A DNA stretch of 64,000 nt from Candidatus Woesearchaeota archaeon (GTDB lineage: Archaea > Nanobdellota > Nanobdellia > Woesearchaeales > ARS49), in assembly GCA_014729505.1 (NCBI GenBank), contig WJJS01000001.1, positions 12,938-76,937 on the forward strand, given 5' to 3'. The translations under genes were made by a program, and so were the position numbers. The first letter of the stretch is position 1, and each line of letters starts with the position of its first letter. This document shows positions 17,606 to 46,346 of the stretch, one piece after another. The notes below the pieces were generated by a model. The model saw only the letters and a program-made list of their open reading frames with translations, searched no databases and had not been told where the DNA came from.

Positions 17606-17640
17606 GGGCCGGTAGCTCAACCTGGTAGAGTGCTCCGTTG
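17606..17640 (+). repeat. Direct repeat: duplicate of tRNA-Ala nt 1-35 (5' segment)
   Basis: GGGCCGGTAGCTCAACCTGGTAGAGTGCTCCGTTG is identical to 17730-17764. Confidence 0.85.
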
Positions 17641-17696
17641 CGATGCTTTCGCCCATCGACAGCGAGGTCCGATCTCACTTGCGTGAGATCCGACAG
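17641..17696 (+). repeat. Conserved ~55-nt hairpin element (copy 1), tRNA-associated
   Basis: CGATGCTTTCGCCCATCGACAGCGAGGTCCGATCTCACTTGCGTGAGATCCGACAG contains a 12-bp hairpin, TCCGATCTCAC/GTGAGATCCGAC. It matches 20053-20108 at about 85% identity. Confidence 0.7.
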
Positions 17697-17729
17697 TTTT
17701 ATGAATAGGTGTTTTTAGTATACGTTTAT

Positions 17730-17803
17730 GGGCCGGTAGCTCAACCTGGTAGAGTGCTCCGTTGGCTTCGGAGAGGCTGCGGGTTCAAATCCCGCTCGGT
17801 CCA
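17730..17803 (+). tRNA. tRNA-Ala (anticodon GGC), no intron
   Basis: Manual fold: acceptor GGGCCGG/TCGGTCC with G3:U70, D-arm GCTC-AACCTGGTA-GAGT, anticodon stem CTCCG/CGGAG with loop TTGGCTT, T-arm GCGGG-TTCAAAT-CCCGC and discriminator A. Confidence 0.85.
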
Positions 17804-17857: not shown

Positions 17858-17879
17858 AGAGGCTGCGGGTTCAAATCCC
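17858..17879 (+). repeat. Partial duplicate of the tRNA-Ala 3' portion (variable arm plus 5' T-arm)
   Basis: AGAGGCTGCGGGTTCAAATCCC matches tRNA-Ala nt 44-65 but lacks the acceptor 3' strand. Confidence 0.7.
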
Positions 17880-20031: not shown

Positions 20032-20046
20032 TGGTGGCGGAGTGGC
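20032..20046 (+). repeat. Direct repeat: duplicate of the tRNA-Met 5' end, including 4 nt of flank
   Basis: TGGTGGCGGAGTGGC is identical to 20132-20146. Confidence 0.8.
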
Positions 20047-20052
20047 ATATTC

Positions 20053-20108
20053 CGATGTTTTCCGCCATCGACACGGAGGTCCGATCTCGCTTGCGCGAGA
20101 TCCGACGG
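20053..20108 (+). repeat. Conserved ~55-nt hairpin element (copy 2), tRNA-associated
   Basis: CGATGTTTTCCGCCATCGACACGGAGGTCCGATCTCGCTTGCGCGAGATCCGACGG. Confidence 0.7.
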
Positions 20109-20135
20109 TAGTCAAGTAACACGAGTATCATTGGT

Positions 20136-20253
20136 GGCGGAGTGGCTTAGCCTGGTTAGAGCACCGCGCTCATAGGTCATACCTTTGAGCACTGAGCTTT
20201 CGAGCTATGACGAAGAAACGCGGGGGTCACGAGTTCAAATCTCGTCTCCGCCA
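20136..20253 (+). tRNA. tRNA-Met (CAT), elongator-like, with a 43-nt intron at 37/38
   Basis: Manual fold: acceptor GGCGGAG/CTCCGCC, D-arm GCTT-AGCCTGGTTA-GAGC, anticodon stem CCGCG with loop CTCATA|intron 20175-20217|A then CGCGG, variable GGGTC, T-arm ACGAG-TTCAAAT-CTCGT and discriminator A. Confidence 0.75.
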
Positions 20254-21284: not shown

Positions 21285-22355
21285 TTGCAGATCATGGTTT
21301 ATTCGCTAGTCAGACCGCTGCTTTTTCGCATGGACGCAGAAAAAGTACATCATCGCCTCGTCAGGTTAGGAACGATGCTCCAACAAGTTCCCCTCGTCTT
21401 GCCGGTGCTTCGCAGTATCTTCACGTATCAGCATCCCGCACTACACGTACAAGTGGACGGCGTAGCGTATGAAAACCCGATAGGGTTAGCAGCAGGTTTT
21501 GACAAAAACGGCGAAATACCTCGATTTATGAGCAGTTTTGGTTTTGGACACGTAGAAATAGGCTCTGTGACAAGTAAACAACACACAGGCAATCCAAAAC
21601 CGCGAGTGCATCGCGTAATAGAAGAACAAGCATTAGTTATCAATTATGGACTAGCAAATCACGGTGCTGCAACAGTAAAACGACGAATAGCAGCGTATGA
21701 TGAAAAGATGCCTATTGGAATTAGCATCGCAAAGACACCCCGCGTAGGAGGAGAACAAGGGATACGCGATTACGCACAATCATTTAGAGATCTATCCATG
21801 CATGGAACGTATACGACGATAAACATCAGTTGTCCAAATGTGGCAGACGGAGAAACGTATGGAGAGAATCCCCGATTATTGCGATCTTTATTGCAAACAC
21901 TCTCAAAAGAAAAAATCGTCTCACCCGTATATCTCAAACTCAAACCAGATTATTCGCACAAACAAATCGATGACATACTCGAGGTTATCAATTCGTTTCC
22001 GTTTGTAAAAGGAGTAATCATCGGCAATCTCACAAAAGAACGAAAAGGGGCAGTCGCGAAAAGAACAGAGTCGGGCGGTATCAGCGGAAAACCAACTAGA
22101 AACAAAAGCACAGCATTAATACGATACGTCTACAAGAAAACAAATGGTCAACTCACCATTATTGGGTGCGGCGGTATCTTTACTGCCCAAGACGCGTATG
22201 ACAAAATAACATCCGGAGCAAGCATGTTACAACTCATAACGGGCATGATCTATTTAGGACCTAGCACCATAAGAAACATCAATAAAGGGCTTGTTACACT
22301 GCTCGAACAAGACGGATTTAAAAGCATCACCGAAGCAACAGGTTCGCGAGCGTGA
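21285..22355 (+). CDS. pyrD: Dihydroorotate dehydrogenase (quinone), class 2
   Basis: The N-terminal membrane-association helix is followed by GLAAGFDKNGE and GFGHVEIGSVT.... The C-terminus is IIGCGGIFTAQDAYDKITSGAS. Confidence 0.85.
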   Translation: MQIMVYSLVRPLLFRMDAEKVHHRLVRLGTMLQQVPLVLPVLRSIFTYQHPALHVQVDGVAYENPIGLAAGFDKNGEIPRFMSSFGFGHVEIGSVTSKQHTGNPKPRVHRVIEEQALVINYGLANHGAATVKRRIAAYDEKMPIGISIAKTPRVGGEQGIRDYAQSFRDLSMHGTYTTINISCPNVADGETYGENPRLLRSLLQTLSKEKIVSPVYLKLKPDYSHKQIDDILEVINSFPFVKGVIIGNLTKERKGAVAKRTESGGISGKPTRNKSTALIRYVYKKTNGQLTIIGCGGIFTAQDAYDKITSGASMLQLITGMIYLGPSTIRNINKGLVTLLEQDGFKSITEATGSRA

Positions 22356-22413
22356 AAGAAAACCACGTTCAAATCCGTAAACTTCTTAACTGGGGCATTT
22401 TATGTGCATATAT

Positions 22414-22427
22414 GCCGACGTCGCATA
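22414..22427 (+). repeat. Direct repeat: duplicate of tRNA-Ser nt 1-14
   Basis: GCCGACGTCGCATA is also present at 22540 and 22756. Confidence 0.8.
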
Positions 22428-22437
22428 CTCTGCGTAT

Positions 22438-22462
22438 CGATGTTTTCCGCCATCGACACGGA
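22438..22462 (+). repeat. Partial copy (copy 3) of the conserved tRNA-associated element
   Basis: CGATGTTTTCCGCCATCGACACGGA matches the first 25 nt of the element at 20053. Confidence 0.6.
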
Positions 22463-22539
22463 CGCGCGGCATTCGCTATTGCTCAGCCCCGCAAGACACA
22501 AATCTTAAAAGGCAGTTCCTTTGTTACTCACTTATTCTT

Positions 22540-22718
22540 GCCGACGTCGCATAATCTGGTACGCTAAAAAACGCATTAGCGTTTTTGGCGCGCCGAAAAG
22601 CTTTGCTTTTCTCGCGTTGCGCCGGTCTTGAAAACCGGTTCCCTTGGGTGCTCGAAAATCTGCGATTTTCGGCACGTACAAAAGCTGACGCTTTTGTCCG
22701 TATCCCGTTTCAAATCCG
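22540..22718 (+). pseudogene. tRNA-Ser(TGA) pseudogene with two large insertions and a degenerate 3' end
   Basis: GCCGACGTCGCATAATCTGGTA, a 55-nt insertion, TTGCGCCGGTCTTGAAAACCGGTTCCCTTGGGT, a 52-nt insertion, then ATCCCGTTTCAAATCCG. The acceptor 3' strand is missing. Confidence 0.6.
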
Positions 22719-22755
22719 TAAACTTCTTAACTAGTGGCATTTCATGCGCATATAT

Positions 22756-22837
22756 GCCGACGTCGCATAATCTGGTATTGCGCCGGTCTTGAAAACCGGT
22801 TCCCTTGGGTATCCCGGTTCAAATCCGGGCGTCGGCG
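22756..22837 (+). tRNA. tRNA-Ser (TGA), class II with a long variable arm, no intron
   Basis: Manual fold: acceptor GCCGACG/CGTCGGC, anticodon stem CCGGT/ACCGG with loop CTTGAAA, variable arm TTCCCTTGGGTAT, T-arm CCCGG-TTCAAAT-CCGGG and discriminator G. Confidence 0.8.
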
Positions 22838-22891
22838 TTTCTATGACGCGAAAGCGTCATCCCATTTTTGAAGTAGTGATTTGAACCGGGG
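22833..22891 (+). repeat. Left copy of a perfect 59-nt direct repeat (last 5 nt of tRNA-Ser plus 54 nt downstream); att-like
   Basis: CGGCGTTTCTATGACGCGAAAGCGTCATCCCATTTTTGAAGTAGTGATTTGAACCGGGG is identical to 23742-23800. Confidence 0.85.
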
Positions 22892-23068
22892 CCAGTCAAG
22901 CTTTGCTTGACGTTGTCCTGGTTTCAAATCCGGGCGTCGGCGTTGTGGGCGCGTTAGCGCTCTTTTTTGTTGTTGTGATTTGAACCGGGGCCAGTCAAGC
23001 TTTGCTTGACGTTGTCCTGGTTTCAAATCCGGGTGTCGGCGTTGTGGGCGCGTTAGCGCTCTTTTTTT
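22843..23068 (+). repeat. Tandem repeat, ~99 nt x ~2.3. Each unit contains an inverted T-arm-like palindrome and ends with the tRNA-Ser 3' end sequence.
   Basis: The unit is TTGTGGGCGCGTTAGCGCTCTTTTTTGTTGTTGTGATTTGAACCGGGGCCAGTCAAGCTTTGCTTGACGTTGTCCTGGTTTCAAATCCGGG(C/T)GTCGGCG. GGGCGCGTTAGCGCTC followed by a T-run is terminator-like. Confidence 0.8.
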
Positions 23069-23135
23069 GATTGCTGCATCATTTCGAATCTAAACCATAA
23101 CCTTTATAAACTATGGCCACTATAGTAACTATAGT

Positions 23136-23336
23136 ATGCCAACAACTATCCAACTCAGCAAAGAAACCAAGAAGCTAATAAGCACGTTTGGTTCCAAAGA
23201 AGATACTTACGACACGATAATTAGAAGACTGTACAAATTAGCTGTTAAGGAGCAACTGAAAGAATTCTTGCTCTCATCAGAAGGAACAATGCCGATAGAT
23301 GAGGCGATTAAGAAAGCCAAGAAAAAATGGCAATAG
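23136..23336 (+). CDS. Small RHH/antitoxin-like protein (putative)
   Basis: 66 aa, MPTTIQLSKETKKLISTFGSKEDTYDTIIRRLYKL. It overlaps the next ORF by 10 nt. Confidence 0.4.
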   Translation: MPTTIQLSKETKKLISTFGSKEDTYDTIIRRLYKLAVKEQLKEFLLSSEGTMPIDEAIKKAKKKWQ

Positions 23337-23668
23337 TAGAGATTACGAAAACACTCTATGAACAGATAGATCGAAAATTCAAAGGAAAAAGTGTCAAAGT
23401 ATTACAACATTTGAAATCATTAGAAGAATCGCCAAAGAAAGGAAAACTCCTAGGAACCATAGGAGGAATAGTGATTAAAGAAGTAAAGTATGAAGGTTTC
23501 AGATTTTATTTCATCACCGACGGATTCAAACTCAAATATACCTCCTCTGAAGATCTTACCGACTTACTTTTGCGGGTTGTAAGAATGTCAGATAAGAAAC
23601 ATCAGCAACAGACTATCGACGAGATCAAACAGATTCTACTAACCATCGGTGTTGAAGGTTTGACTTGA
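23327..23668 (+). CDS. RelE/ParE-like toxin candidate (putative)
   Basis: KSLEESPKKGKLLGTIGGIVIKEVKYEGFRFYFITDG resembles the RelE/ParE core. This is sequence-pattern judgement only. Confidence 0.35.
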   Translation: MAIVEITKTLYEQIDRKFKGKSVKVLQHLKSLEESPKKGKLLGTIGGIVIKEVKYEGFRFYFITDGFKLKYTSSEDLTDLLLRVVRMSDKKHQQQTIDEIKQILLTIGVEGLT

Positions 23669-23741
23669 TAGCCTTCCTTGGCTTGATGTAATGCAAACCG
23701 CATGCACAGGTAAAAAATAACTCAAAAGAAGCCCAGAACCA

Positions 23742-23800
23742 ACCATACACCGGCGTTTCTATGACGCGAAAGCGTCATCCCATTTTTGAAGTAGTGATTT
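23742..23800 (+). repeat. Right copy of the perfect 59-nt direct repeat
   Basis: Identical to 22833-22891. Confidence 0.85.
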
Positions 23801-23854
23801 GAACCGGGGATCTTTGCTTGGCAGTATGCTGATGAAAATACGGCGTTTCAAGAA

Positions 23855-24965: not shown

Positions 24966-26255
24966 TTAAGCCTTTTTAACAAGATCAACACAGACGCCAG
25001 CAGCGACTGTCTTACCACTGTCACGAACAGCAAAGCGGGACAATTTTGGATTGTCCTTTTGCGTCTCAATGACCAACGCTTGTACCGGCTTGAACTTGAT
25101 GATCGCAATGTCTCCATTCTTGACAAAATCAGGCTTTTCCTGAAGCGTCTCACCAGTAGCAGGGTTTAGTGTCTTTACGATCTCTGTTACTCTACACGCG
25201 ACCTGAGCCGTGTGAATGTGGAACACAGGTGTGTAGCCGATAGTGATCACAGATGGGTGATCCATTACCACTACTTGACCGGTAAACTCCGTAGCAACTG
25301 TAGGCGGATTGTCTGTATGTCCTAGCACATCTCCACGAGCGATATCCTTAATACCAATACCACGAACGGAGAATCCAACATTATCGCCGGGCAGAGCCTT
25401 TTGCATTTGCTGGTGGTGCATCTCAATGGACTTACACTCTCCAGTCACTCCCTTACCTTCACGACCAGGAGTTACAATAACCTTATCACCGACCTTCATT
25501 ACTCCAGTCTCAACTTTACCAACGGGAACAACGCCAATACCCTTGATGTTATACACGTCTTGCAAAGGCAAGCGGAGAGGAAGATCCGTAGGTTTTTCAG
25601 GAACATTCAAACTGTTCAATGCGTCAAGCAGTGTCTTACCCTGGTACCAAGGCATCTTGTCAGATTTCTTGACAACATTATCGCCTTTTAGAGAAGCAAT
25701 AGCAACAAATTGTACGTCGTCAACCTTCCAACCGGCTGTCGTTAGAGTCTTCTTGACATCTTCAACAACCTTCTTGAACTTGTCTTCAGAGTACTCAACT
25801 CCGCTGATATCCATTTTGTTAACAGCAACGATAAGCTGGCTAACGCCAAGGATCTTTGACAATCGGGAATGCTCAATCGTTTGAGCATTAACACCGTCAT
25901 TAGCAGCGACAACAAGCACGGCAGCATCCGCTTGAGATGTTCCCGTAATCATGTTTTTGACAAAATCCCTGTGTCCAGGAGCGTCAATGATCGTAAAATA
26001 GAACTTGTCTGATTTGAATTCTTTGTGCGCAAGATCGATAGTTACACCGCGCTCCTGCTCTTCCTTTAATCCATCCATAACAAAAGCAAACTCAAAACCG
26101 CCCTTACCGAGCTGTTCAGCTTTCTCTTTGAGTTTACGCATTGCTTGCTCATCAATGTTTCCACTATCGAAAAGCAATCGTCCAACCGTCGTGGACTTTC
26201 CGTGGTCAACGTGTCCAATGAACACGAGATTCATGTGTGGTTTATCTTCAGCCAT
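24966..26255 (-). CDS. tuf: Translation elongation factor 1-alpha
   Basis: [25 protein letters not shown] and NKMD motifs. The protein is 429 aa. Confidence 0.95.
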
Positions 26256-42882: not shown

Positions 42883-43659
42883 ATGCACAAAGCATTAACG
42901 ATAGTATTGCTAGGAATTCTTCTAGTTGGATGCTCAACAACACTAGACACGTCGTCGACAAATCCGCCAACAGCGCCGCACTCAACTTCAAGTCCTCCAA
43001 CAACACAACACCCCGCAACAGAGAACAATTCACAACACACCACAACACAAAATGATTCACAATATCCGACAACGCAGAACGATTCACAACACACGGCAAC
43101 CAATGACTACGTTGCGGGACGAGAACTCTTCAAACTACAACGGGATTCAGACAGTGCACTGGGACAACGAGTAACAGACTTTTTCCCACTTCCTGCAGGA
43201 GCAGTTCTTGTCGAGACAAGACATTTTGGAGCGCAACAATTCAAAGCAAATCTTGTATCAAAAACAGGAGACATATTTCCTTTAGTCAATGATGAAGGAT
43301 ACATTCTTACCACTACGCTGCACTCTTTTGCGGCAGGCCAGTACCTGCTAGACATGATCATCAATGGCGAAGTTACCTTTATCATACGAACACCGGACAT
43401 AGAAGAAGCAACATCATGGAGCGGAGCCGGCAAGAAGTTCACCCCCTTCTTTACACTTTCAGGAACCAACACCTTTGAGATGTCGTTTCAAGGAAATGGA
43501 TTATACATCGTGTCACTATACAATCAAGCAGGAGAACGCATCGCCGTACTTGCACAAGGCGACACCACAGAAAAAACAAACACTGACGTAACCGTACCAC
43601 AAGGACTCTATCTGTTAGGTATAGAATCAACAGGAGTCTGGGACATACAACTCAAATAA
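42883..43659 (+). CDS. Lipoprotein with a Thr/Gln-rich repeat linker
   Basis: MHKALTIVLLGILLVGCSTT (lipobox LVGC) and repeats TTQNDSQ(Y/H)(P/T)TTQNDSQHTAT. Confidence 0.55.
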   Translation: MHKALTIVLLGILLVGCSTTLDTSSTNPPTAPHSTSSPPTTQHPATENNSQHTTTQNDSQYPTTQNDSQHTATNDYVAGRELFKLQRDSDSALGQRVTDFFPLPAGAVLVETRHFGAQQFKANLVSKTGDIFPLVNDEGYILTTTLHSFAAGQYLLDMIINGEVTFIIRTPDIEEATSWSGAGKKFTPFFTLSGTNTFEMSFQGNGLYIVSLYNQAGERIAVLAQGDTTEKTNTDVTVPQGLYLLGIESTGVWDIQLK

Positions 43660-46024: not shown

Positions 46025-46106
46025 TCCCCGCCCCCGGACTCAGCGTTAACCTGCGGTTAACTGGCTGCAGAAAACACTTCGTGTTTTTGCAGTGAACCAG
46101 GAACCT
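46025..46106 (-). repeat. Partial duplicate of the tRNA-Tyr 3' portion (variable arm to 3' end) with a 50-nt hairpin-rich insertion in the T-loop
   Basis: The minus strand reads AGGTTCCTGGTTCA, then a 50-nt insert, then AGTCCGGGGGCGGGGA. Perfect palindrome TGAACCAGGAACCTGGTTCA is on the plus strand at 46093-46112. Confidence 0.65.
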
Positions 46107-46144
46107 GGTTCAAGCCTTGTAAGATATTGTTTCCAAAAAGAAAA

Positions 46145-46268
46145 GTCCCCGCCCCCGGACTTGAACCAGGAACCTCGCGGTGACGGCTGACTCGCCTTCA
46201 CGTCTCGAGCGTTGCTCGGAATCAGTTGAGTTTCTACAGCCGCGCGCTCTACCATTGAGCTAGGCGGG
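46145..46268 (-). tRNA. tRNA-Tyr (GTA) with a 51-nt intron at 37/38
   Basis: Manual fold on the minus strand: acceptor CCCCGCC/GGCGGGG (C1:G72, archaeal Tyr identity), D-arm GCTC-AATGGTA-GAGC, anticodon stem CGCGG with loop CTGTAG|intron|A then CCGCG, T-arm CCTGG-TTCAAGT-CCGGG and discriminator A. Confidence 0.75.
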
Positions 46269-46346
46269 GATAGACGAGAAAAAAAACTACGGGGTTTAAA
46301 AGGGTTTTGGACGAAAAGACATAAATATCCCTTGCTTTGAGCCTTT

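Follow-up and report, generated by a model that had tools for sequence, protein, structure and literature searches.

The origin of intron-interrupted, split and permuted archaeal tRNA genes is an old open question, for which the sole concrete model so far comes from one Caldiarchaeum locus. In Caldiarchaeum subterraneum, a 5′ fragment of tRNA-Thr lies upstream of the intact gene, and a mobile element whose attP carried an extra insertion was proposed to explain intron gain (Sugahara et al. 2012, PMC3293823). Exact repeats of tRNA 3′ sequence are also the classical mark of integrative elements, such as the 44-nt tRNA repeat of SSV1 (PMC3293823) and the 22- and 43-nt tRNA 3′ repeats at the ends of Haloquadratum prophages (PMC3119063), and the tRNA fragments that result from integration are common and non-functional (PMC9897764). 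Archaeal tRNA genes are further interrupted by introns, whose published non-canonical sites include 20/21, 22/23 and 45/46 (PMC4090602). Here we analyze a tRNA-Ser(UGA) locus in a 64,000-nt stretch of archaeal DNA (the window; 43% G+C) taken from a metagenome-assembled genome (MAG) of Candidatus Woesearchaeota, in which an intact gene stands between pieces of itself.

With a probability of roughly 0.6, we read the locus as one functional tRNA-Ser(UGA) amid non-functional by-products of recurrent mobile-element-type insertion at tRNA loops. This reading draws on the anatomy of the locus, on the absence of splicing motifs and of a 3′ end from its interrupted copy, on the recurrence of like fragments at other tRNAs and in other genomes, and on element homology between different tRNA types.

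Anatomy of the tRNA-Ser(UGA) locus

The gene at 22756–22837 is the sole functional-looking tRNA-Ser copy at the locus and follows the repeats, as a first-pass annotation of this DNA had stated. Rfam searches at gathering thresholds and at E ≤ 5 around the locus, and at 10 related loci, returned tRNA models only. The pieces that make up the locus are:

22366–22377, plus strand: T-loop fragment no. 1 (CGTTCAAATCCG), corresponding to tRNA-Ser linear nt 62–72
22378–22413, plus strand: leader copy A, 36 nt, with three substitutions and one indel relative to leader copy B
22414–22427, plus strand: 14-nt tRNA-Ser 5′ fragment (nt 1–14)
22428–22539, plus strand: C region, 112 nt, between 15-nt repeats of the tRNA-Ser start
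22540–22561, plus strand: truncated copy, segment 1 (nt 1–22), identical to the intact gene
22562–22616, plus strand: insertion 1, 55 nt, two hairpins, at D-loop position 21/22
22617–22649, plus strand: truncated copy, segment 2 (nt 23–55), identical to the intact gene
22650–22701, plus strand: insertion 2, 52 nt, two hairpins, at the variable arm/T-stem junction
22702–22718, plus strand: truncated copy, segment 3 (nt 56–72), with G53 changed to T, ending in the T-loop
22719–22755, plus strand: leader copy B
22756–22837, plus strand: intact tRNA-Ser(UGA), 82 nt, no encoded CCA (ARAGORN; Rfam RF00005, 58.5 bits)
22833–22891, plus strand: 59-nt exact direct repeat, copy 1, from the last 5 tRNA nt to inverted T-arm piece no. 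1
22839–22877, plus strand: trailer 1, terminator-like, hairpin TATGACGCGAAAGCGTCAT followed by a T run
22865–23062, plus strand: two tandem 99-nt units, 96% identical (Tandem Repeats Finder score 378)
22878–22891, plus strand: inverted T-arm piece no. 1 (GATTTGAACCGGGG), complementary to CCCGGTTCAAATC of the tRNA at 13/13 positions
22892–22918, plus strand: hairpin CCAGTCAAGCTTTGCTTGACG
22892–23750, plus strand: 859-bp segment between the 59-nt repeats, holding two 3′ fragments and two small open reading frames (ORFs)
22919–22944, plus strand: orphan 3′ fragment no. 1, from the T-loop to the tRNA 3′ end plus TT
23136–23336 and 23327–23668: the small ORFs of the 859-bp segment (66 and 113 aa), overlapping by 10 nt
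23751–23809, plus strand: 59-nt exact direct repeat, copy 2, with unique chromosomal sequence beyond it

On the upstream side, a 62-nt repeat (22366–22427 against 22708–22769; 92% identical, BLAST E value 3e-18) is present in two copies, as part of the first-pass annotation had it, and is not triplicated, as another part did. Its first copy begins 10 nt beyond the pyrD stop codon (22353–22355), close to the gene as had been described. The repeat was annotated as a leader, which it does contain, but it is composed of a T-loop piece, the 36-nt leader and tRNA nt 1–14, and its start lies within the tRNA T-loop (TTCAAATCCG). The duplicated unit is therefore the junction between T-loop and leader, repeated with a period of 342 nt. 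The 14-nt 5′ fragment that had been noted after the first leader copy is indeed there and, together with the T that precedes it, forms a 15-nt direct repeat with 22539–22553.

Between these 15-nt repeats lies the C region, in which the partial copy of a hairpin element seen at first pass could be placed exactly: 22438–22462 is identical over 25 nt to 20053–20077 upstream of tRNA-Met. These 25 nt are only the beginning of a longer element, hereafter the C element, that is found upstream of tRNA-Met and tRNA-Ala. A search for the element motif gave 3 matches against 0.06 expected, and the upstream repeats are not due to chance. The C region also holds a TATA-like box (TCTTAAAAGG, 22506–22515) about 35 nt ahead of the truncated copy, which may act as a promoter by analogy with the boxes upstream of other tRNAs.

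The second tRNA-Ser copy (22540–22718) carries insertions of exactly the 55 and 52 nt that had been reported, and its description as full-length but decayed needs revision on both counts. It comprises only nt 1–72 of 82, lacking the 3′ strands of the T-stem and of the acceptor stem, and 71 of its 72 positions match the intact gene, the sole change being at the conserved G53. Its second segment retains the 3′ strand of the D-stem, the anticodon arm with TGA and the variable arm, and its end in the T-loop is itself T-loop fragment no. 2. A scan of metagenome contigs with the middle segment of tRNA-Ser gave no matches. Each insertion folds on its own into two adjacent hairpins, a typical hairpin of such a module having a base of 2–5 bp, one mismatch or bulge, a stem of 7–8 bp and a loop of 3–4 nt. 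Hairpins whose arms are 12 nt long, whose fourth pair is mismatched and whose loop has 4 nt occur three times in the whole window, twice in the elements upstream of tRNA-Ala and tRNA-Met and once in insertion 2. Insertion 1 has no target duplication and contains a run of five T (T5); insertion 2 has a junction that is ambiguous by 2 nt and lies at about 47/48. No convincing terminal inverted repeats or target duplications were found at either insertion, the best terminal match being 5–9 of 14.

The first-pass annotation had offered as an alternative that this copy is an intron-loaded gene and had placed the insertions at sites of non-canonical archaeal introns; they do lie next to published sites, but coincide with none. 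For the archaeal bulge-helix-bulge (BHB) motif, we wrote out the geometry and scored the pairs of the outer, central and inner helices. The controls, namely the window's Met and Tyr introns and the tRNA-Met intron of the related locus L008, gave 5/5 outer and 2–3/4 central pairs with correct spacing, and inner helices of 6/6, 1/6 and 5/6, respectively. Insertion 1 scored 1/5, 3/4 and 2/6 for the outer, central and inner helices, insertion 2, which allows three junctions, reached no more than 3/5, 2/4 and 2/6 across them, and the T-loop insertions of downstream fragments described below scored equally poorly. The insertions were thus rejected as BHB introns, the geometry having failed at every insertion junction and the real introns having passed. 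Since the motif is absent at both insertions but present in the two real introns of the window, the multi-intron reading is not supported at the level of predicted RNA geometry. As a separate observation, the central helix in the Met and Tyr introns has only 2–3 of 4 pairs, so motifs in this lineage are relaxed even where the intron is canonical in position.

Further features of the copy bear on the same question. Runs of T reach T3 at most in the real introns, compared with the T5 of insertion 1. The exons supply nt 1–72 only, not a complete cloverleaf with both acceptor strands, and ARAGORN calls no tRNA in the truncated copy whether the insertions are kept or removed; it does call tRNA-Ser when the exons are grafted to the orphan 3′ fragment from 205 nt downstream. 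Abutting halves with BHB flanks and no intact gene, as in a split tRNA, are not what the locus shows, because the intact gene is present.

On the downstream side (22839–23809), which the coordinates of the first-pass annotation cut off, pieces of the tRNA 3′ end recur in tandem. Each 99-nt unit consists of the inverted T-arm piece GATTTGAACCGGGG, the hairpin CCAGTCAAGCTTTGCTTGACG, the 22 nt at the tRNA 3′ end (TTCAAATCCGGGCGTCGGCGTT) and a terminator-like hairpin (GGGCGCGTTAGCGCTC) with a T run behind it. The 22-nt tRNA 3′ repeat is thereby present in three copies, with orphan 3′ fragment no. 1 being an exact repeat of 22818–22839. The apical AAGCTTTGCTT of hairpin CCAGTCAAGCTTTGCTTGACG is shared with the second hairpin of insertion 1, and the stem changes between the two are compensatory. 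The 59-nt repeat starts in copy 1 with GGCG plus the following T. Its 859-bp insert has its own TATA-like box and a two-ORF layout that resembles a toxin-antitoxin pair; neither ORF had an NCBIfam or PHROG match, DUF7557 being found only below threshold.

Taken over both sides, the breakpoints fall in tRNA loops, with five direct and three inverted T-loop pieces, plus one at nt 14; position 21/22, in the D-loop, is a further breakpoint. Exact repeats of tRNA ends (22, 59, 15 and 35 nt, the last at tRNA-Ala) surround inserted DNA, with the gene regenerated, as in attachment-site duplication. The clustered breakpoints, the duplicated junctions and the tandem 3′-end copies fit the first-pass description of a layered record of repeated recombination.

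Self-fragments at other tRNA genes and in other genomes

The tRNA genes of the window found by Rfam number four (Ala, Met, Ser and Tyr). Besides tRNA-Ser, they and the protein genes next to the locus are:

17730–17803: tRNA-Ala(GGC)
20136–20253: tRNA-Met(CAU), with a 43-nt canonical intron
46146–46269, minus strand: tRNA-Tyr(GUA), with a 52-nt canonical intron
21285–22355: pyrD
24966–26255, minus strand: EF-1alpha

With default settings, ARAGORN found only the Ala and Ser genes and missed both intron-containing tRNAs (Met and Tyr); with introns enabled, it called tRNA-Met(CAU) as Ser(cga). A 27-nt tandem repeat of 3.4 copies (CACAACACACCACAACACAGAACGATT) lies apart from these genes at 43004–43094, inside or beside the ORF 42883–43659.

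All four tRNAs (4/4) are flanked by fragments of themselves. The repeated recombination that the first-pass annotation placed at one tRNA thus stands as recombination, but it is not peculiar to tRNA-Ser, in the window or among relatives. Upstream of tRNA-Ala there is a copy of its own first 35 nt (17606–17640), and upstream of tRNA-Met a 15-nt copy of its own start (20033–20047), each followed by the C element of about 57 nt (CGATGYTTTCSSCCATCGACA..GAGGTCCGATCTCRCTTGCGYGAGATCCGAC), which stands between the 5′ copy and the intact gene (17606–17728 for Ala, 20033–20135 for Met) and in full form is found nowhere else in the window. The full Ala and Met elements differ by a compensatory A-T to G-C change in the long hairpin (GATCTCAC/GTGAGATC versus GATCTCGC/GCGAGATC). 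Part of the element, TTCCGCCA, is similar to the 3′ end of tRNA-Met and can base-pair with the 5′ fragment, so the C element might be a deleted tRNA-Met copy, though the similarity is slight and the tRNA-Ala version does not fit.

Downstream, tRNA-Ala is followed after 54 nt by a 22-nt copy of its variable/T-arm region (17858–17879), which breaks just after the T-loop (TTCAAATCCC/TTCAGG). Downstream of tRNA-Tyr (46025–46114, minus strand), an inverted T-arm piece (CTTGAACCAGG) leads directly into a copy of the T-arm and 3′ end, and a two-hairpin module of 52 nt, which lacks a BHB motif, interrupts this copy between A57 and A58. The TATA-like boxes that characterize tRNA genes of this group (YTTWAAAA, about 28–40 nt upstream) stand ahead of the 5′ fragments and not of the intact genes. 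Their placement suggests that the 5′ fragments and elements were inserted between promoter and gene and would be transcribed as part of long pre-tRNA leaders.

The closest relatives are distant by pyrD (only 56% protein identity) and less so by EF-1alpha (84–86%). The first-pass annotation had called for a comparison of synteny, in which, judged by pyrD and EF-1alpha, only L008 keeps the gene order: its pyrD is 56% identical and syntenic, and its tRNA-Ser lies between pyrD and S10/EF-1alpha. At L008, neither tRNA-Ser nor tRNA-Met has upstream copies; downstream, tRNA-Met has a copy of its own 3′ end, and behind tRNA-Ser there is an inverted T-arm piece, then TCCCAGTTCA, a two-hairpin module of 50 nt and AATCTGGGC. 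In L009–L012 synteny is lost. In L009 (EF-1alpha 84% identical), tRNA-Gly(UCC) lies nested at 1958–2311, with a 5′ copy ahead of it and a 3′ copy behind it, the former consisting of nt 1–26, a 50-nt two-hairpin insertion (26/27) and the anticodon arm up to the intron, with a TATA-like box upstream of this outer copy. Two hairpins stand ahead of the 3′ copy, and one of them (CCGAAAAGCTTGCTTTTCG) resembles hairpin 2 of insertion 1.

A parallel to the truncated copy is found at L109 (5291–5670, minus strand), where a tRNA-Ser(UGA) has upstream of it a truncated copy with a two-hairpin insertion of about 50 nt at the same D-loop site as in the window; this copy ends within the anticodon loop, at a distance of only 18 nt from the intact gene. 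A 15-nt 5′ fragment at L074 is comparable to those of tRNA-Met and tRNA-Ser in the window. In L125 (361–490, minus strand), an intact tRNA-Ser(UGA) contains a 45-nt intron at the canonical position that consists of two hairpins, with a central helix of 4/4 by hand count, so two-hairpin modules can be genuine introns in this clade. The second hairpin of that intron (CGAAACCGCAGGTTTCG) resembles the second hairpin of the module downstream of the window's tRNA-Tyr. Compared with the modules of other loci, those of the window have no sequence homologues and share the architecture only.

To see how far this arrangement extends, metagenome contigs were scanned for a T-loop followed 38–63 nt on by its reverse complement, which gave at least 120 loci. 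Among the matches listed, only 4 are convergent tRNA pairs, and at least about 100 are a tRNA with an inverted T-loop piece. Over all sampled loci, 82 of 141 tRNAs have a direct and 93 of 141 an inverted downstream copy; among tRNAs outside the selection by this pattern, 18 of 53 have downstream direct copies, several of them tandem. The direct repeats are 14–25 nt long and start 15–25 nt before the tRNA 3′ end, that is, in the T-loop, and the DNA between tRNA and repeat mostly measures 85–110 nt.

The intervening elements are homologous across tRNA types and contigs: a Pro/Met pair is 88% identical over 145 nt, a Pro/Ser pair 90% over 101 nt, a Leu/Val pair 83% and a Val/Phe pair 91% over 57 nt. 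In the Pro/Ser pair (L022 4400–4709, minus strand, and L109), a near-identical 75-nt module occupies the site TTCA^AATC of both T-loops, within the 3′ copies downstream of the genes, and its flanks follow the local tRNA. In 832 kb, homologues of the elements were found at 155 places, 150 of them no more than 450 nt from a tRNA. This homology across tRNA types, with local tRNA sequence on the flanks, speaks for a spread of defined sequences and makes mere local copying errors less likely.

Among the metagenome contigs L013–L132 a stereotyped layout is widespread, in which the tRNA is followed by a hairpin, an inverted T-loop piece, one or more hairpins and finally its T-arm and 3′ end as a direct copy, which is often tandem (for example L016 1250–1561, minus strand; L020; L015 8300–8800; L080 6300–6864, minus strand). 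Literature searches found no published description of it. A GC-rich version of the layout has hairpin loops GAACAAC..GTGA, which might form tandem G-A pairs. The GC-rich part of the sample comes from hypersaline sites, and its tRNA parts are 75–95% identical to Halobacteria replicons, a rough placement; some of the survey matches encode CCA and look bacterial.

Probable mobile DNA and its rivals

Under the explanation we favor, mobile DNA would integrate in a tRNA gene, and the part of the tRNA beyond the breakpoint would be carried in or duplicated, so that the intact gene is regenerated at each event and the displaced piece remains as a direct repeat. On the 5′ side, such events would yield the 15-nt repeat of the tRNA start that brackets the C region and, with the duplication of the junction between T-loop and leader, the 3′-truncated copy ahead of the intact gene; on the 3′ side, they would yield the two 99-nt units ending in tRNA sequence and the 59-nt repeat around the 859-bp insert. 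The two-hairpin modules of about 50 nt would insert cleanly into the truncated copy, and the same class of module is also found in the T-loop of downstream fragments at tRNA-Tyr and at tRNAs of relatives. The copies, which we take to be probably functionless, would be tolerated because RNase P and tRNase Z recognize the folded tRNA body and excise the intact tRNA from a longer precursor.

Several observations weigh against this explanation. No integrase or recombinase domain was found in ten mid-sized ORFs of the window or in the ORFs adjacent to the locus, and the DNA between repeats (36–112 nt, and 859 bp) is too short for an autonomous element. No attP-like copy turned up in viral contigs or phage records: a BLAST search of the locus against phage records had no match, the tRNA-Ser 5′ end had none in the viral attP search, and the tRNA-Ser 3′ end was rejected as a viral attP, matching unrelated phage tRNA arrays only. 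Scans with the C element gave nothing in viral contigs and only chance bacterial matches in public genome contigs, a set that does not include the source genome. The direct-inverted-direct order of T-arm pieces is not a classical integrase product, and the variable repeat lengths misfit such an enzyme. The insertions lack target duplications and terminal inverted repeats. Finally, the tRNA-derived parts of the truncated copy have 1 change in 72 nt compared with 4 in 36 nt in the duplicated leader, the D-loop insertion site is shared with the truncated tRNA-Ser copy of L109, and a TATA-like box lies upstream of the copy. These last three features would also fit a copy that is still used; together with the compensatory hairpins, they could reflect recency, gene conversion or selection.

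A copy still in use could be a working multi-intron or split tRNA-Ser gene from which both insertions are spliced out, with its 3′ end supplied by one of the downstream orphan fragments, or with leader B and most of the intact gene forming a giant third intron. In its favor, the exons are better kept than the leader and give a tRNA-Ser call with the orphan 3′ fragment, site 21/22 is shared with L109 and lies beside the known 20/21 and 22/23 (PMC4090602), an intact tRNA-Ser with a two-hairpin canonical intron exists in L125, the copy has its TATA-like box, and L3-loop splicing endonucleases of DPANN archaea have been linked to more disrupted tRNA genes (PMC5829648). The inverted T-arm piece before each orphan 3′ fragment moreover complements the copy's T-arm at 12/13 positions, which recalls the complementary flanks of split tRNA halves, but this complementarity is exon sequence and forms no bulges. 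Neither a BHB nor a relaxed BHB is present at either insertion where positive controls pass, G53T breaks the conserved G53-C61 pair, insertion 1 contains the T5 run, a complete intron-less gene with the same anticodon stands 37 nt downstream and would make a second gene redundant, and like fragments at other tRNAs can be as short as 11–15 nt, too short to encode anything. We regard this reading as quite improbable. A use in cis, for which the flanking copies would be kept, is unlikely though less so: they could shape a precursor RNA structure that affects processing or termination, for example with the inverted T-arm piece pairing to the downstream T-arm copy where it might otherwise invade the tRNA, or they could serve as decoy or blocked attachment sites, in keeping with the idea of Randau and Söll that gene disruption protects against integration (cited in PMC3293823). 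The architecture is stereotyped and widespread; the inverted piece tracks its own tRNA's T-stem (CCGGG in the window, CTG in L008); hairpins vary in a compensatory manner in the C elements and between GAAAAGC/GCTTTTC and GTCAAGC/GCTTGAC; the boxes upstream of the 5′ fragments make transcription as long leaders probable; and the L109 fragment stands only 18 nt from its gene. Between relatives, however, the layout is kept and the sequence is not, copy number and composition vary by tRNA and genome, L008 does without upstream copies at the orthologous tRNA-Ser and tRNA-Met, no Rfam family matches, and tracking of the local tRNA is equally expected of recent copies.

It is likewise unlikely that no mobile element was involved and that replication errors, by fork stalling with template switching or by slippage between short repeats, duplicated parts of a highly structured, heavily transcribed gene in direct and inverted orientation and added short patches from loci nearby. 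This account accommodates the order of the T-arm pieces, the tandem 99-nt units, the 342-nt period of the duplicated junction, the exact 25-nt patch shared with the tRNA-Met upstream region 2.4 kb away, repeat lengths that vary over 15, 35, 22 and 59 nt, and the lack of a recombinase gene among the window ORFs scanned. It does not lead one to expect elements up to 90% identical beside different tRNA types and contigs with local 3′ ends flanking them, a conserved 57-nt element upstream of three window tRNAs (its first 25 nt at tRNA-Ser), or a spacing stereotyped across distant taxa, with the inverted piece 40–60 nt after the tRNA, and mobile DNA is for us the more probable maker. An assembly artefact, with strain variants of the tRNA-Ser locus stitched in series, is very improbable. 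The source is a MAG, and heterogeneity of populations at tRNA loci is documented (PMC3293823), but the repeats do not reach the length of typical reads, TTCAAATCCG/TAAAC is a junction that stands in two different left-hand contexts, and the nested layout appears in independent assemblies from other samples (L008, L009, L019, L022 and L109).

There is, more tentatively, a real if minority chance that the small flanking units belong to a new, undescribed class of miniature non-autonomous DNA elements specialized on tRNA-gene loops. A downstream unit may consist of the terminator hairpin, the inverted T-loop piece, one or more hairpin modules and the tRNA 3′-end copy, an upstream unit of the 57-nt C element with a tRNA 5′-end copy, and a third kind of unit of the two-hairpin modules of about 50 nt that land in the D- and T-loops of redundant copies. 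Each insertion would duplicate a tRNA end, so that the gene survives and the site is renewed for the next insertion. More speculatively, and by analogy with folded attachment sites, the inverted T-loop piece and the T-arm copy could form a T-arm-mimicking hairpin attachment site at which a host or helper recombinase inserts the unit. A miniature inverted-repeat transposable element or other cut-and-paste transposon was rejected on the terminal match of 5–9 of 14 and on duplications of 0, 2, 14–15, 35, 22 and 59 nt. For palindrome-associated elements derived from IS200/IS605 (PATEs) the comparison is mixed: two hairpins and the lack of a duplication would fit, whereas the modules are only 50–55 nt long, have no common left-flank target (GGTA, GGGT, TTCA) and show no sequence similarity to one another. 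Casposons were rejected as well: only the 15-nt duplication fits, and there are no terminal inverted repeats and no Cas1 among the ORFs scanned.

If the elements are mobile, they would offer a testable mechanism for the entry of foreign sequence into tRNA genes and would explain why standard tools miss or miscount DPANN tRNAs. Should they form such a class, it would occur widely in DPANN archaea, in haloarchaea-like genomes and in some bacteria and would lead directly to disrupted tRNA genes and intron-like insertions. If instead they are mere scars, the lesson is one for annotation, in that fragments should not be called genes or multi-intron pseudogenes.

Comparison with known systems

Casposons insert at archaeal tRNA gene ends with a target duplication of 14–15 bp, which the 15-nt 5′ repeats of tRNA-Ser and tRNA-Met resemble; the locus differs in its missing terminal inverted repeats, in its other repeats of 22, 35 and 59 nt and in the position of insertions on the 5′ side. 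The attP(+) of CTX phage (XerCD) and the attC of integrons are folded-hairpin attachment sites. As in these, single-stranded DNA could fold through pairing of the inverted T-loop piece with the direct T-arm copy and mimic the target, integration would regenerate a usable site and thereby allow tandem arrays, and the hairpins show their mismatch or bulge at a constant position close to the base. Unlike attC, the T-loop sequence is off the integron core consensus, and the elements are far smaller than the known members.

With split tRNAs, such as those of Nanoarchaeum equitans and Caldivirga, the locus shares separately encoded pieces in a DPANN archaeon and a sequence before the 3′ piece that complements the end of the 5′ piece. 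It differs from them in that the complete gene is present, the complementarity is that of the exon (T-arm) without a BHB, and the pieces overlap where split halves abut. The clean insertions of about 50 nt without target duplication recall the multi-intron tRNAs of Thermoproteales and their intron transposition (PMC4090602), since their places are likewise the D-loop, the variable/T junction and the T-loop, and the near-identical 75-nt module at the same T-loop position next to two different tRNAs (L022 and L109) recalls a transposed intron. In contrast to archaeal introns, the junctions lack the BHB, the hosts are truncated fragments in place of complete genes, and positions 21/22, about 47/48 and 57/58 adjoin the listed intron sites without being identical to them.

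Integrative viruses and plasmids (SSV1-type, pNOB8-type and haloarchaeal prophages) leave the same exact copy of the tRNA 3′ part, which starts in or near the T-loop, 22 nt here, and the same tandem arrays of non-functional fragments from repeated events. Here, however, the repeats enclose 36–112 nt or 859 bp, compared with 5–50 kb, and no integrase was found; an inverted T-arm piece precedes each 3′ copy, there are fragments on the 5′ side too, and the same family of mini-elements occurs at many different tRNAs. The Caldiarchaeum locus shares the 5′ fragment as an upstream direct repeat and an insertion in the D-arm of one copy (24/25 there, 21/22 here), for which recombination between attachment sites with and without the insertion was the proposed cause. 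There, the copies are separated by 1.8 kb and a recombinase gene, whereas here a 36-nt spacer lies between them, and a BHB intron in a functional gene there compares with non-BHB insertions in a truncated copy here. The Woesearchaeota locus is best filed beside it, as a variant of tRNA-gene fragmentation by mobile DNA, and with its parallels provides a much denser record than that single case: fragments on both sides of the gene, breakpoints in the loops, intron-sized modules at recurrent positions, and families of elements of about 100 nt common to different tRNAs.

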